Shown: positions 4,222 through 10,481, counted from the stretch's first letter. The stretch is DNA of 32,000 nt from Candidatus Baldrarchaeota archaeon (GCA_019056805.1 DXJG01000007.1:60001-92000), one strand, 5' to 3'. Notes: generated from the sequence alone by a model not told the origin. A program made the numbers and translations.

Positions 4222-6315
4222 GTGGATATCGCAGTTGAGCCAGAATGGTGGTACCTATGGATTCCTTTGCTAGCTAGCCTCATAGCTATTGGTGTGATTG
4301 CATATCTTATATCATACATTAAAAAGAAACCCGTTGGAACAGAGAAAATGAAAGAAATCGCCGAGGCTATCAGAATAGGCGCTAAGGCCTATCTAAAACG
4401 TCAAAACACCACGATCGCCATGGTCGCCCTGATTATAGCTGTCGGTCTATACATATATGACTTTGTCAGTCACGGTGGAATCCCATTCTATTCCCTTGCA
4501 TTCGTTCTAGGAGCAGCAGCATCTACCTTAGCCGGGTACATAGGTATGAACATCTCCACAATTGCTCATGTAAGAACCACCGAAGCCGCTAGGAACCATA
4601 ATCTTCCCGAAGCAACAAAAATCGCATTTCGTGGCGGTGCAGTCACAGGTTTAGGTATTACAAGTATAAGTATTCTCAGCCTCACCATCTTATACTATGT
4701 TTATTCAATGATTGCCGGTGTTCCAAACCCAGAACTAGTAGTTAGCTTCGGTTTCGGTGCCAGCTTAGTAGGTCTTTTTGCCCAGCTTGGAGGCGGCATC
4801 TACACTAAGGGTGCAGATGTTGGTGCAGATATAAGTGGAAAGGTTGAAGAAGGAATTCCTGAAGATGATCCAAGAAACCCAGCAGTAATAGCTGACCTAG
4901 TTGGAGACAACGTAGGCGACTGCGCTGGCAGAGGAGCTGACCTATTTGAATCTTTCACCGATAACAATATTGGTGCTATGATTCTTGGAATAGCACTCGT
5001 AGCATACTTTGGCTTCGCTGGCGTAGTATTTCCATTAATTGCAGGTGCCATCGGCATCGTAGCCTCAATTATCGGTATCTTAACCGTAGGTAAAATTAAG
5101 AAAGATGACCCAATGATGTCAATAAATGCAGGATACATTCTAATGGGTATCACGGCAGCGATTTTGTTCTATATCTCCATAGTATTAATGTTAGGAGGAA
5201 AAATTGTCTTTTTCATCGATATTGTTATTGGCATAATCACCGCTGTTTTAGTTGGCCTCTTAATACAATATTACACCAGCTATCAATACAAGCCAGTTAA
5301 GACCATAGCTGAGGCAGCAAAAACAGGGCCTGCAACAAACGTTATCACAGGACTAGCAGTCGGAATGAAGAGCACTGGAATACCACTCATCGTATTATCT
5401 GCTGCGATAATTATCTCGTACATAATCTCTGGCGGATTAGTCGACCATAAGATGGGCTTTTACGGAATCGCCATGGCTACACTGGGCATGTTATCTATGA
5501 CCAGTATAATCATGTCCTCTGACACATTTGGCCCAATAACCGATAATGCCGGTGGAATTGCAGAAATGTCTGGCCTTGGCGAAGACGTTAGAAAAATCAC
5601 TGACATGCTAGACTCTATTGGTAACACTACAAAAGCTATAACTAAAGGATATGCCATGGGCTGTGCAACACTTTCAGCATTCGTCCTCTTTGCATCATAC
5701 CTTGAAATAGTATCCGCAAGGATCCCAGATTTCACCATTAGCCTAACATCGCCTGTAACGATTCTAGGACTGTTTCTTGGAGGAATTGTTCCATTCCTAT
5801 TCTCAGCATACGCAATAGAGGCTGTTGGAAAAGCAGCATTCAAGATTGTAGAGGAAGTAAGAAGACAATTCAGAGAAATACCTGGATTAAGAGAAGGAAA
5901 AGCAAAGCCGAGATACGATGTGGCTGTTGACATTGCGACAAAGGCAGGTATAAAGGGTATGCTTATCCCTGGTGCCATAGGTATTATAAGTCCGATAGTT
6001 GTTGGAGTACTCTTTGGTACTGAGACACTTGCTGCATTTCTTCTTTCAGCCACTGTGACTGGTGTTATCTTAGCTATCTTTATGTTCAATGCTGGTGGTG
6101 CTTGGGACAACGCTAAGAAGTATATAGAGACTGGTGCTTTTGGAGGTAAGGGAAGCGATACTCATAAAGCAGCTGTTGTAGGAGACACAGTTGGAGATCC
6201 ATTAAAGGATACTAGTGGGCCTTCACTTCACATACTGGTTAAACTGCTTAACATCATTGCACTAACGTTGACCGTGCTGTTCTTGAATCCCATAATACTG
6301 CTTTTATTAGGCTAA
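4222..6315 (+). CDS. hppA: Membrane-integral ion-pumping pyrophosphatase, paralog 1 (K+-independent signature)
   Basis: 697 aa. Motifs DVGADISGKVE, EDDPRN, DNVGD, DNAGG, GNTTKA (Lys form), WDNAKK and GDTVGDPLKD are present. GTG start with GAGGTG at 4209-4214. Confidence 0.95.
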   Translation: MDIAVEPEWWYLWIPLLASLIAIGVIAYLISYIKKKPVGTEKMKEIAEAIRIGAKAYLKRQNTTIAMVALIIAVGLYIYDFVSHGGIPFYSLAFVLGAAASTLAGYIGMNISTIAHVRTTEAARNHNLPEATKIAFRGGAVTGLGITSISILSLTILYYVYSMIAGVPNPELVVSFGFGASLVGLFAQLGGGIYTKGADVGADISGKVEEGIPEDDPRNPAVIADLVGDNVGDCAGRGADLFESFTDNNIGAMILGIALVAYFGFAGVVFPLIAGAIGIVASIIGILTVGKIKKDDPMMSINAGYILMGITAAILFYISIVLMLGGKIVFFIDIVIGIITAVLVGLLIQYYTSYQYKPVKTIAEAAKTGPATNVITGLAVGMKSTGIPLIVLSAAIIISYIISGGLVDHKMGFYGIAMATLGMLSMTSIIMSSDTFGPITDNAGGIAEMSGLGEDVRKITDMLDSIGNTTKAITKGYAMGCATLSAFVLFASYLEIVSARIPDFTISLTSPVTILGLFLGGIVPFLFSAYAIEAVGKAAFKIVEEVRRQFREIPGLREGKAKPRYDVAVDIATKAGIKGMLIPGAIGIISPIVVGVLFGTETLAAFLLSATVTGVILAIFMFNAGGAWDNAKKYIETGAFGGKGSDTHKAAVVGDTVGDPLKDTSGPSLHILVKLLNIIALTLTVLFLNPIILLLLG
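4852..4952 (+). repeat. 101-nt tract shared with 7178-7278 (3 mismatches)
   Basis: Direct comparison of the two hppA genes over GIPEDDPRNPAVIAD-x-VGDNVGDCAGRGADLFES. Confidence 0.95.
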
Positions 6316-6324
6316 AACTCATTC

Positions 6325-6331
6325 TTTTTTT
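6325..6331 (+). terminator. Possible archaeal oligo-T terminator after hppA paralog 1
   Basis: T7 run 10 nt after the stop codon. Confidence 0.45.
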
Positions 6332-6562
6332 ATTTAAAGAATTTTATATAATTTCTCATTTATATTAAAGCTAATAGATAGTTATATTTAGGTGTATTTT
6401 AAAATCGTTAGTGTTCTCTATGTATTCAAAAGCGTTTATTGGAAAACCGGATCTTAATGAGACACATATTTTGCCCTGTCTGGGAGTTACCAATTATTAG
6501 AACAGTCAAAAAAGCCAACAAAAATGCAAAATGATGAATAAAGATGAAATGAGGGAAAAGTA

Positions 6563-8746
6563 ATGATAGGTGTCACCATACTCATACTAGTTACGGCTAT
6601 TGTTGGGGTTATTGGCGCAATTGGATTTCTTTTCCTTGTAAGCAAATACGAGACCGGAACAGAAGAAATGCAAAACGTGTGGCTAGCGATAAGACAAGGT
6701 TCCAATACTTATCTCAGTAGACAATTTAAATCGATTTTATCAATAGCAGTTATACTTGCAATACTCATAGCAATACTAGGATACATATTCCCCGTAGAAA
6801 CAGAAATAGGGCCAGATTATCTTTATGGAGCTAAAATTGCAGGGGCATTCATTCTAGGTTCGTTATTCTCATTACTCGCCGCTTATATCAGCATGGATGC
6901 GTCGACGAGAGCAAATGTAAGAACAACTGCAGCCGCGGTAAAAAGTTCACGTGAAGCACTTACCGTAGCAACCTACGGAGGAGCAGTACTTGGATTATCA
7001 GTTATCAGTATAAGTCTTCTAGGCTTAACAGCCCTTTACATCTTATTTAGGGATCCAGGGATACTTGCGGGCTTCGGTTTCGGTGCCAGTTTGGCAGCTC
7101 TTTTCGCTCAGCTTGGAGGCGGTATTTATACGAAGGCAGCTGACATAGGTGCTGACCTTGTAGGCAAAGTTGAAATGGGAATTCCTGAAGATGATCCAAG
7201 AAACCCAGCAGTAATAGCTGATCAAGTTGGAGACAACGTAGGCGACTGCGCTGGCAGAGGAGCTGACCTGTTTGAATCAGTAACCGCGGAAAATATTGGT
7301 GGTATGATAATTGGACTCATAGTATACTTCATCTTCTATTACACCACGGGTTTACGCGTCGAGTTGTTCATCATATTGCCGTTGTTAGTGAGAGGAATAG
7401 GAGTCTTTGCAACATACATTGGTGTGGGAATATCTCTTAAGAAAGAAGAATTCACCGATCCGATGACGCCGCTCAGAATAGGTTTCTTTACAAGTGTTGC
7501 AGCATGTGCAATTCTACTATATGTTGCTCTAACGATATTTCTACCACATGCGACATATCTTTACATAGCTTCTCTTCTCGGTATCTTGGCGAGTCTTTTC
7601 ATAGTACTTGAAACAGAAATTTATACAGCGAGCGGATCAAAATATGTTAAAGGGACAGCTGAGGCGGCGAAGACAGGCCCAGCAATAAATATATTATCAG
7701 GTCTTGCTGCTGGAATGGAATCCACCGCACTACCAATTATAACAATAGTTGCAGCTCTTGTAGGCTCCTTTTACCTCGGATCGCAATGGGCAGTTGTAAG
7801 TGGTTTAGGAGATGTTTTTATTGGAGGAGTTTATGGCACGACTTTAGCAACAATGGGAATGCTTTCAGTTTGTGGAATGGTTTTAACAATGGACGGTATT
7901 GGACCTATAGTTGACAATGCCGGTGGAATTGCTGAGTTAAGTGGAGCTGAAAAAGAATTAAGAGATAGATTAGAGCCTCTCGACGCTCTAGGAAACACTA
8001 CAAAAGCATTAACAAAAGGATACGCTATGGCTTCTGCAGCTTTAGCAGCGCTTCTACTATTTCAAGCATTTATTCTTGAAGTTGCAAGATACGAGGCAGG
8101 TATTTGGGACATTGTAAATCCGAGTCCGGAAGCTTTAACAGCACTACTTCAAACAATAGAATCATTCGTTAGCCAAATGGCATTAAACAAGATAACTGTA
8201 GTCATTGGAGCTTTCGTTGGAGGGATGATTCCATTCTTGTTCTCCTCTGCAGCTATAAAGGCTGTTGGAGACGCTGCTCACGTAATGGTTGAAGAGGTAA
8301 GAAGACAATTCCGAGAAATACCTGGACTAAGAGAAGGAAAAGCAAGACCAGATTACTCTCGATGCGTTGACATAAGCACAAAATACGCGCTTAAAAAGAT
8401 GATTATACCTGGGTTGATAGCAATTATTTCACCGCTAGTTATTGGATATGTTTTTGGCTGGGTAGCAGTGGGTGCATTGGTAATTGGTGCAACGGTAACA
8501 GGAGTTCCATTGGCAATAATGATGATGTGGGGAGGATGTATCTGGGACAATGCAAAAAAATACGTCGAATCTGGAAAATTTGGAGGTAAAGGCTCCTCAA
8601 CACATGCAGCAGCTGTTGTAGGAGACACAGTTGGAGATCCATTGAAAGATACAGCAGGTCCAAGTCTCCACATACTAATAAAACTACTAAACACAGTGTC
8701 TCTCGTTTTCATACCAGTATTTCTCGCATCGCTACTTATAATCTAA
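6563..8746 (+). CDS. hppA: Membrane-integral ion-pumping pyrophosphatase, paralog 2 (K+-independent signature)
   Basis: 727 aa. Motifs DIGADLVGKVE, EDDPRN, DNVGD, DNAGG, GNTTKA, WDNAKK and GDTVGDPLKD are all intact. Confidence 0.95.
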   Translation: MIGVTILILVTAIVGVIGAIGFLFLVSKYETGTEEMQNVWLAIRQGSNTYLSRQFKSILSIAVILAILIAILGYIFPVETEIGPDYLYGAKIAGAFILGSLFSLLAAYISMDASTRANVRTTAAAVKSSREALTVATYGGAVLGLSVISISLLGLTALYILFRDPGILAGFGFGASLAALFAQLGGGIYTKAADIGADLVGKVEMGIPEDDPRNPAVIADQVGDNVGDCAGRGADLFESVTAENIGGMIIGLIVYFIFYYTTGLRVELFIILPLLVRGIGVFATYIGVGISLKKEEFTDPMTPLRIGFFTSVAACAILLYVALTIFLPHATYLYIASLLGILASLFIVLETEIYTASGSKYVKGTAEAAKTGPAINILSGLAAGMESTALPIITIVAALVGSFYLGSQWAVVSGLGDVFIGGVYGTTLATMGMLSVCGMVLTMDGIGPIVDNAGGIAELSGAEKELRDRLEPLDALGNTTKALTKGYAMASAALAALLLFQAFILEVARYEAGIWDIVNPSPEALTALLQTIESFVSQMALNKITVVIGAFVGGMIPFLFSSAAIKAVGDAAHVMVEEVRRQFREIPGLREGKARPDYSRCVDISTKYALKKMIIPGLIAIISPLVIGYVFGWVAVGALVIGATVTGVPLAIMMMWGGCIWDNAKKYVESGKFGGKGSSTHAAAVVGDTVGDPLKDTAGPSLHILIKLLNTVSLVFIPVFLASLLII
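7178..7278 (+). repeat. Second copy of the 101-nt tract (cf. 4852-4952)
   Basis: 44 nt identical, 2 mismatches within 3 nt, 45 nt identical, 1 mismatch, 8 nt identical. Confidence 0.95.
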
Positions 8747-8859
8747 TTTCTCATTTTTTGTTAAAAAGCCATAGACCTTTTTATTTGTTAAGAAATAAGT
8801 TAGAAATATGTTGTTTGTTCTTATGGCGCATGATCATATACTTGATATCAGCAACATAA

Positions 8860-9009
8860 AATGACATTTAAAAACGGTCAAAATCTTTGTTTTCCGTCAA
8901 TAACATATTTTTGGAAAGAGTTCTTCAGACCAGATATCGATGAATGATAATATATAAAAAATATTGGCAGAATAATTGGTAAAAAGCTGAAATTAACTTC
9001 CTTATTAGT
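8860..9009 (-). pseudogene. Possible decayed DUF262 (ParB-like/GmrSD) fragment
   Basis: Minus-strand open stretch reads ...LPIILPIFFIYY...KYVIDGKQRF*. Removing 2 T from a T-run restores QRLTVF. Motif resemblance only. Confidence 0.3.
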
Positions 9010-9058
9010 TCATAGGTATTATTTGTTGCGATTGGACGAATTGCAGAGGTGAAAACTT

Positions 9059-10189
9059 CTGGCTAATAGCGATTCCAAATATATAACATATGAAGATTTG
9101 ATTGGAAAAGAAGGATGGGAATTGGTAAAAAGACATGGGAAAAGTCCAGTAAAACTTATTAAAATAGCCGGAAAGGAAAAGGTAAAGGAAATATTTAGGG
9201 AACTAAGCAAATTTGTAGGAACTGTGGTTATAGGAAGAATATTCGGAATTTCTCCCCGATATGTTCGTGATCTCTTTGAGAAACTTGAAATACCCCGACC
9301 AAAGGAAAGGGAAAAGAAATGGTTCGCACCCTATTCTGAAAACGTTGACAAACCTTTATATTTTGCAAATATAAAAAATCGTAGGCTTGCAATATACGGA
9401 ACAAAATTATCTCCATTGGACGCACATTTAATAGGATTAATTCATGCGGATGGAAACATAGTAACCAATAGAAGAGATTGGTACTACCGTGTCAATATTA
9501 TACAAACATCTCTGGAACGATTTCCATACATTTGTGAGTTATATTTCCGATATTTTGATGAACAAAGAATACAAAGACATCAAACTATTTATGTAGAATT
9601 TCATAAGAGTAAAGTGATAAAGGAAAGTAATAAACTTAGACGTGCCAAAGTAAACGTGGCAACAAAAACAATACATAATTATGAAGACATGAGACTAGTA
9701 CTGAATCTTGGATACAAGTTATATAAAGAAAAAAAGGCAAATAGTTATAAATTGGGTATATCAAATAGAAGATTAATTTCTCTTTCAATAAAGCGCAGAC
9801 CTTATCTGGATTACGTTTTGAAATGGATAAGTAAGGATAAAGGGCTTTTTCTCCAATGGTTTAGTGGATTTCTTGAAGGAGACGGATATATTAACTTGTA
9901 TTGGATAGAAGTCAAAAACACCGAAAAAATTTTCATTGACTATATCAAGAAACAATGGAAGAAATATGGCATAATATGGAAACCTCCATACGTTCGCAAG
10001 CCTCAATCACTTTCAAATTCTTACGGAATAGAAAGCAAGAAAATTAATTATGTAATACGTGTCTTTAATAGCAAAGATAGAATTCCCCTTCTCCAAGAAA
10101 TTTTACCTCACATAATATTTCCAGATCTTATAGCCAAAGTAAGTTCCATTTTGGAAAGAAAAACGATCAAGAAACTGAATGGTTGTTGA
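9059..10189 (+). CDS. Free-standing two-motif LAGLIDADG homing-endonuclease-like protein with N-terminal HTH-like segment
   Basis: Motifs AHLIGLIHADG and WFSGFLEGDG; HTH-like VIGRIFGISPRYVRDLF; very basic protein. The frame is open back to a CTG at 9059, 6 nt after GAGGTGA (9046-9052). The ORF track starts at TTG 9098. Confidence 0.8.
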   Translation: MANSDSKYITYEDLIGKEGWELVKRHGKSPVKLIKIAGKEKVKEIFRELSKFVGTVVIGRIFGISPRYVRDLFEKLEIPRPKEREKKWFAPYSENVDKPLYFANIKNRRLAIYGTKLSPLDAHLIGLIHADGNIVTNRRDWYYRVNIIQTSLERFPYICELYFRYFDEQRIQRHQTIYVEFHKSKVIKESNKLRRAKVNVATKTIHNYEDMRLVLNLGYKLYKEKKANSYKLGISNRRLISLSIKRRPYLDYVLKWISKDKGLFLQWFSGFLEGDGYINLYWIEVKNTEKIFIDYIKKQWKKYGIIWKPPYVRKPQSLSNSYGIESKKINYVIRVFNSKDRIPLLQEILPHIIFPDLIAKVSSILERKTIKKLNGC

Positions 10190-10446
10190 TCGTTCGAAAT
10201 TTTGTGTTTAAGGAGAGGACTAAGCATTGGATTGGAAACGTGGTCATGTTTATATTATGTGCACCTTTAGCGTATTTCCTTGGATTTGGAATTATCGGGG
10301 TAATAGCGGCATTAATCGCTAGTATGGTTGAACACATTGAAAAAATAGGTGGTAAATTTATAGATGACAATATAACGGTTCCAATAAGTAGTTTCATAGT
10401 GTTAAGCATTTTTACATTGATGGGTGTTCCATATATATCGCTATGA
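10183..10446 (+). pseudogene. 5'-truncated dolichol/polyprenol kinase (CTP_transf_1/SEC59-like); C-terminal part only
   Basis: IVRNFVFKERTKHWIGNVVM...IASMVEH...IDDNITVP is the C-terminal signature of the family. The in-frame upstream sequence (stop at 10078-10080) is not kinase-like. Confidence 0.7.
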
Positions 10447-10458
10447 TCAAATTGGGGG

Positions 10459-10481
10459 AAACCGTGATTAAATCACGGTTT
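10459..10481. repeat. Perfect 11-bp inverted repeat with 1-nt spacer (AAACCGTGATT-A-AATCACGGTTT) between convergent genes; possible bidirectional terminator
   Basis: Read directly; it overlaps the stop codon of the 10473-11762 gene. Confidence 0.8.

Follow-up and report, generated by a model that had tools for sequence, protein, structure and literature searches.

In bacteria, the tufA/tufB genes and the rRNA operons undergo concerted evolution, in which whole genes stay nearly identical over long times. In archaea, gene conversion between the paralogous chaperonin (thermosome) genes was reportedly described by Archibald and Roger in 2002. Here we analyzed a 32,000-nucleotide (nt) window, corresponding to contig C15:60001-92000 of its genome, which carries two tandem genes for membrane pyrophosphatases (mPPases), named A and B, and observed short tracts of nearly identical DNA in these otherwise highly diverged paralogs. 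We consider it very likely that the tracts result from short-patch ectopic (interlocus) gene conversion between A and B in the lineage of this genome. As in the tuf genes and the rRNA operons, the transfer would be non-reciprocal and within one chromosome, and the paralogs are more alike than the orthologs are; in the mPPase pair, however, conversion is episodic, limited to one lineage and restricted to about 9% of the gene. The case resembles the thermosome in that archaeal paralogs are homogenised in part within a genome while the rest keeps the paralog signal, and in that it was found through conflicting phylogenetic signal. It differs in that the mPPase paralogs are far more diverged (51% amino acid identity, with saturated silent sites), the tracts are much shorter (36-101 nt), and the genes are those of membrane pyrophosphatases in an Asgard host.

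Multiple conversion between paralogs was also described for the bacterial release factor genes RF1 and RF2 (PMC4530459, Sci Rep 2015). Both cases concern partial conversion of anciently diverged, functionally distinct paralogs and were seen from phylogenetic conflict. The release factor genes, however, are bacterial and not in tandem, and the larger segments exchanged there change the protein, whereas the mPPase patches are almost silent and limited to motifs that were already identical. No report of gene conversion in membrane pyrophosphatases turned up in the literature searched. The mPPase pair is a fresh and unusually clean example of an established process, notable because its partners are so deeply diverged and its tracts so short. 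As judged from their sequences, A and B are both members of the membrane-bound pyrophosphatase family:

4222-6315, plus strand: gene A, predicted membrane pyrophosphatase of 697 amino acids (P0001), full-length match to PF03030 (E 3e-245)
6563-8746, plus strand: gene B, second predicted membrane pyrophosphatase, 727 amino acids (P0002), full-length match to PF03030 (E 2e-237)

Gene A starts with a GTG codon at 4222. Both proteins cover positions 1-645 of the PF03030 profile, with scores of 816 and 790 bits for A and B, respectively. The two genes lie in direct orientation, 2.3 kb apart, and are 51% identical in protein and 57.6% identical in DNA sequence. The first-pass annotation of the window had listed four tracts of much higher identity together with a conserved control peptide. 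Recounting reproduced its coordinates and mismatch counts exactly, as well as the six synonymous differences it claimed for the control:

4852-4952, plus strand: tract 1, A copy (motif GIPEDDPRNPAVIADLVGDNVGDCAGRGADLFES), 101 nt with 3 mismatches to the B copy
7178-7278, plus strand: tract 1, B copy, with the B-specific Gln codon CAA retained at 7223-7225
5857-5905, plus strand: tract 2, A copy (motif VRRQFREIPGLREGKA), 49 nt with 2 mismatches, both synonymous
8297-8345, plus strand: tract 2, B copy, paired with 5857-5905
6168-6203, plus strand: tract 3, A copy (motif AAVVGDTVGDP), 36 nt with 0 mismatches
8608-8643, plus strand: tract 3, B copy, paired with 6168-6203
4745-4763 and 7071-7089, plus strand: 19-nt identity (motif FGFGAS), 0 mismatches
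5308-5340 and 7658-7690, plus strand: internal control, AEAAKTGPA-x-N peptide, 7 mismatches in 33 nt, 6 of them synonymous

Every tract lies in frame in A as well as in B. Tract 1 is made of two identical runs of 44 and 45 nt on either side of the retained Leu codon of A. Its centre reads GAC CTA in A and GAT CAA in B, so that the residue and the adjacent silent site are both kept, and the Leu of A and the Gln of B are paralog-specific in every ortholog.

The identity of the tracts was compared with a null expectation in which codon usage was taken from 18 long open reading frames (ORFs) of the window or from A and B themselves, and scan-corrected P values were obtained by simulation over the whole gene with 20,000 null draws. 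Outside the four tracts, the same codon was found at 107 of 272 shared degenerate residues, as compared to 99-102 expected. Since codon identity there equals the codon-usage expectation, the silent sites outside the tracts are saturated. In tract 1, 30 of 32 codons were identical where 13.5 were expected (raw P 4e-10), and the score was far above those of all 20,000 null draws (scan-corrected P<5e-5). Tract 3 also exceeded the expectation, with 11-12 of 12 identical codons in the scan segment 6163-6201 and a scan-corrected P of 0.001. A GENECONV-style permutation test on 301-308 silent polymorphic sites, the kind of check that the first-pass annotation had proposed, recovered the region of tract 1 in this pair as the fragment 4843-4944, with 1 mismatch at 31 sites (P=1e-4). 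Tract 1 appears to extend to about 5007 through scattered identical codons (ACC, AAT ATT GGT) between retained paralog-specific residues. These codons are suggestive of patchy conversion and inseparable from chance.

Close loci were gathered by a search for homologous proteins and then for the contigs encoding them. A metagenome scan with protein A returned only relatives of at most 54% identity, was swamped by conserved motif patterns and gave no close loci. The closest homologs carry the labels Baldrarchaeota or Asgard archaea and originate from hydrothermal and subsurface sediments. The tandem A-B pair was found in three species-level lineages, namely the present genome (G000, with its copies A0 and B0, also A_G000 and B_G000), the G001 group (L117, L119, L124 and L126) and the L123/L125 group, into which the G002 fragment falls. 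Orthologs of gene A were found in G001, L117-L126, G008 and L121, and orthologs of gene B in G001, G002, G004 and L117-L126; G008 and L121 are relatives with A only, and G004 has B only. Two such genes in tandem are a feature of this small clade. The orthologs of G000 and of the other two tandem lineages differ by about 18% in DNA. In tract 1, A0 and B0 differ at 4 of 102 sites, whereas 14-20 of 102 sites separate each copy from its orthologs (14-18 for the A copy) and A/B pairs from different genomes differ at 15-30 of 102. The corresponding values are 2 of 48 for A0/B0 versus 5-16 of 48 for cross-genome A/B pairs in tract 2, and 1 of 36 for A0/B0 versus 5-8 of 36 for orthologs in tract 3. 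In tracts 1 and 3, therefore, the paralogs within G000 are closer to each other than each copy is to its ortholog.

Trees were built by maximum likelihood from the three tracts (186 nt) and compared with the rest of the gene (2,046 columns). In the tract tree, A_G000 and B_G000 were joined with a support of 90/93, and the approximately unbiased (AU) test rejected a clade of the A genes of the tandem lineages (p=0.006). In the non-tract tree, A and B formed clades with a support of 100/100, about 2.8 substitutions per site apart on each side, and the grouping of A0 with B0 was rejected (p=3e-90). The copies thus cluster by genome in the tracts and by paralog elsewhere in the gene, which is the pattern that the first-pass annotation had anticipated for conversion.

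To examine the assembly itself, the window was compared with independent contigs. The stretch or part of it is present in sixteen public runs, and Logan contigs (k=31) were compared from the likely source run and three other runs, representing four studies altogether. Contigs from all four unique flanks enter the tracts by exactly 30 nt and then end (at 4881, 4914, 7207, 7240, 6174/6197 and 8608-8643), a pattern characteristic of a repeat that is truly common to two loci. Both flank-to-tract junctions of A and of B were reproduced in the four runs with 0 differences. The A-specific centre (4853-4943) and the B-specific centre (7178-7269) of tract 1 were each recovered as a contig with no differences, the latter at a depth of 13.8 as compared to 5.7-8.0 in the flanks. 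Tract 3 was found as a collapsed 36-nt contig with a depth of 20, compared to about 8 in the flanks. Collapsed pieces thus have approximately twice the depth of the flanks, and all contigs of the source run agree with the assembly. In run X6, which contains a strain about 97% identical (roughly 3% diverged), the contigs break at the same places, including tract 2. The X6 strain reads A at 8312, which is the state of copy A, and one of the two mismatches of tract 2 is gone. Both copies physically carry the tracts, with the phasing given by collinearity and by the Leu and Gln codons.

Other explanations were weighed against what had been shown, namely that the tracts are alike, and more so than codon usage predicts, that this likeness is specific to the genome, and that both copies physically exist. 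A constraint at the nucleotide level, such as selection for optimal codons at catalytic residues, a structured RNA or a target site for a regulatory RNA common to both genes, could hold the same synonymous codons in both genes with no transfer of DNA. The tracts do lie in the most conserved motifs, codon bias alone makes a codon identity of about 40% expected, and tract 2 is compatible with codon bias alone. However, the same-genus orthologs of both genes did not keep the same synonymous codons, since those of the sister lineages differ at the 14-20 of 102 sites of tract 1 and the 5-8 of 36 sites of tract 3 reported above, and this speaks so strongly against codon or RNA constraint that we give it almost no credence. 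The condition by which the first-pass annotation would have let such constraint refute conversion is thereby decided for conversion. Preference for optimal codons is ruled out as the cause because A and B also agree in rare codons, with two GGC (usage 0.14), four GAC (0.34) and one CTA (0.19). Moreover, Pro, Ala, Ile, Asp and Gly are each encoded by two codons within the tracts, and these mixed choices are matched position by position. The equally conserved AEAAKTGPA, GNTTKA and AQLGGGIYTK motifs do not have such an excess in G000. An artefact of assembly or polishing, by which one tract was pasted over the other copy or a chimeric contig was formed at the repeats, was considered as well, since the host genome is a metagenome-assembled genome (1.9 Mb in 18 contigs, with a completeness of 91% and a contamination of 3.6%) and short-read graphs are ambiguous where repeats exceed k. 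Such an artefact is extremely improbable in view of the Logan assemblies from four runs and four studies, which reproduced both junctions in both genes, of the separate recovery of the A- and B-specific centres together with the doubled depth of collapsed pieces, and of the fact that, to the left and to the right of each tract, A and B are collinear with their orthologs. The independent short-read contigs show both copies with their tracts and not the collapse or chimera that the first-pass annotation had named as a possible source of the pattern.

The first-pass annotation had gone further and read the tracts as ongoing concerted evolution that homogenises the active-site loops. If concerted evolution were sustained, conversion would recur in all tandem-pair lineages and would be kept for a benefit to the active site. 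Consistent with this, the A-B distance in tract 1 is about equal to the ortholog distance in all three tandem lineages. In the within-genome pairs of the sister lineages, the best silent-site fragments fall in the adjoining motif block 4651-4797 (P 0.001-0.005), where the L123 pair also has lineage-specific CTC and TTT codons common to A and B. These fragments count only as a hint, and a control pair from different genomes gave a similar P value. On the other hand, the within-genome A/B tract distances of the G001 and L123 lineages (16-18 of 102) are the same as the cross-genome distances. A quartet test of the two sister lineages without G000 found 21 genome-type and 15 cross-type sites (p=0.2), with both types intermixed inside tract 1. 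The patches change essentially no residues, and no selective benefit is evident. Taken together, these results make sustained concerted evolution unlikely, and "ongoing" was an overstatement, as the sister lineages are without clear signal. Nothing was functionally homogenised either, because the tract motifs are identical among all orthologs and were so beforehand, the patches alter almost no amino acid, and the Leu/Gln difference was kept. What holds from that earlier reading is conversion in the G000 lineage with two individually significant tracts; its claim does not extend with the same force to the other two. A quartet of G000 and G001 had 9 genome-type sites in tract 1 and no cross-type site, from which a second conversion, in G001, was considered and rejected. 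This count is uninformative because cross-type sites are impossible where A0 and B0 are identical.

Several points weigh against gene conversion in G000, or against its extent. Tract 2 alone was not significant in the codon-usage scan (scan-corrected P 0.47). The 19-nt tract, with 5 of 6 identical codons and a raw P of 0.02, was not significant after the scan, and this identity probably does not exceed chance. In the permutation test, the control pair A_L121/B_L123 reached P=0.002, and hence the test is somewhat anti-conservative. The AU test on the tracts gave only p=0.064 against the monophyly of all A genes. In addition, the tracts were picked after inspection of the sequence, so that the tests on the tract tree are somewhat flattered, a weakness of which the codon-usage scan is free. 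Contigs of k=31 cannot phase across identical runs of 44-45 nt, and the phasing rests on the collinearity with orthologs on both sides and on the Leu (A) and Gln (B) codons of tract 1. Finally, stretches shorter than 100 nt that are only about 80% identical are poorly suited to classical homologous recombination.

With these points included, we still regard conversion between A and B as the best account of the tracts, and from it we infer the molecular route, the number of events and their direction. Short DNA patches would have been copied between the tandem, anciently diverged mPPase genes in a Baldrarchaeia-like Asgard lineage. At least two patches would be required: one for tract 1, where either a single stretch of about 100 nt or a pair of runs of about 45 nt each would have been copied, and one of at least 36 nt for tract 3. 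Tract 2 is a probable third. Purifying selection on the cytoplasmic motifs that bind Mg-pyrophosphate keeps islands of about 75-83% identity, and pairing would be possible only at these islands, since elsewhere A and B (about 52% identical) would be too diverged. The patches may then have been copied by heteroduplex repair after a break or by template switching at a fork. The Leu/Gln difference in tract 1 may have been retained through two flanking patches, through patchy repair or through selection.

The location of the tracts is consistent with such a requirement for homology. Baseline identity was calculated as the mean of eight A/B comparisons without G000 in 45-nt windows. The gene-wide mean was 0.54, and the top windows started at 4906 (0.825), 5845 (0.819), 4852 (0.786), 5614 (0.772), 4774 (0.767) and 6169 (0.744). 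Of these six islands, four coincide with tracts 1, 2 and 3, the three highest among them. Since the tracts sit on the islands of highest baseline identity, their confinement to catalytic motifs is better explained by the homology that recombination needs, which is also the simplest account and requires no benefit.

With the Leu/Gln site set aside, A0 and B0 have 2 silent differences in tract 1, as compared to 18 between orthologs in the same columns, and 0 in tract 3, as compared to 7. These few silent differences suggest that the events are young, at about one tenth of the time since the split of G000 and G001, an age that would be comparable to the 3% strain divergence in run X6. Because more than 900 nt of unalignable DNA lies between the tracts, they are most simply taken as separate events. 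In tracts 1 and 2 together, five diagnostic sites are A-like and one is B-like, and two more A-like codons follow tract 1 immediately on its 3' side; one site each in tract 3 and in the 19-nt tract is B-like. This suggests transfer from A to B for tracts 1 and 2, with too few diagnostic sites to decide.

Directly 3' of gene B, a 1.7-kb insertion (8760-10476) contains one further ORF:

9098-10189, plus strand: single-copy LAGLIDADG-like ORF with two LAGLIDADG-like motifs, match to Pfam LAGLIDADG_3 (25.3 bits, cut-off 22.5)

The insertion is missing in the same-genus L117, in which gene B and a CDP-alcohol phosphatidyltransferase gene are 230 nt apart. Among the three tandem-pair lineages, G000 alone combines the insertion with clear conversion tracts. 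A link between the LAGLIDADG-like element and the conversions is speculative. One could imagine that recombination in this clade tolerates islands of less than 100 nt and about 80% identity, and that breaks from a LAGLIDADG-type element triggered a burst in G000 only. We consider this scenario rather improbable; if it were true, tract length and the homology threshold for recombination in an uncultured relative of eukaryotes could be read from this locus as from a natural record.

The closest solved structure to both proteins is 8b37, a K+-insensitive H+-PPase from Pyrobaculum. The Asp-rich motifs of A and B are visible in the alignment to 8b37, where the motif GNTTKAITKGYA of gene A aligned with GNTTKATTKGYA of the structure; the counterpart in gene B is GNTTKALTKGYA. 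Both proteins contain GNTTKAxTKGYA, with Lys at position 12.46 and Thr at 12.49, a marker pair of K+-independent H+-PPases (PMC10897367). Since this pair is present, A and B are classed as the K+-independent H+-PPase type, for which pumping and K+ independence are predicted. They share PF03030 and the same Lys 12.46 and Thr 12.49 with the enzyme of Pyrobaculum aerophilum (PaPPase; 8b37, PMC10897367), and they differ from it in their tandem arrangement and in that their ion specificity and K+ independence are predictions from sequence only. The database names of A and B, sodium-translocating, were assigned by a generic rule.

Some additional observations were made around the locus and in the genome. 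The gene 3' of B encodes a CDP-alcohol phosphatidyltransferase in G000 and in G001/L117, and in L123-L126 this position is taken by a radical-SAM activase and a pyruvate formate-lyase-like gene. L124 and L126 differ from G001 downstream, although their pyrophosphatase genes are 96-97% identical to those of G001. A rearrangement point seems to lie on the 3' side of the A-B pair. Between L119 and G001 (L033), the DNA identity is 99.1% in gene A and only 96.1% in gene B, and this unequal divergence suggests recombination between strains within the locus. The B orthologs of L119, L124 and L126 were called with N-terminal extensions of 11 to 44 residues (738-771 amino acids) that do not align to the start of B at 6563, and their true start is probably an internal Met. 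A genome-wide self-comparison was used to find other tandem paralogs with raised identity; without orthologs, conversion and recent duplication look alike in such a comparison. Two tandem genes for proteasome alpha subunits (C9:257298-258918; 252 and 253 amino acids) share 91.5% DNA identity over 484 nt, owing either to a recent duplication or to a further conversion. In a tandem pair of small GTPase genes (C9:519764-521091, minus strand; 193 and 188 amino acids), the DNA identity is 83% over 209 nt at the end with the G1 motif.

The A-B pair provides a clean and well-controlled case of very short patches (36-101 nt) between paralogs with saturated silent sites. Knowledge of the enzyme mechanism is unchanged: the patches alter next to nothing in the proteins, and the residues that tell the paralogs apart, one of them inside tract 1, are preserved. 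For the family, such patches can mislead phylogenies and the assignment of membrane pyrophosphatases to subfamilies. They also make k-mer repeats, and short-read assemblies fragment exactly at the tract motifs. For the organism, the locus offers indirect insight into the small amount of homology on which recombination can proceed in an uncultured Asgard archaeon.

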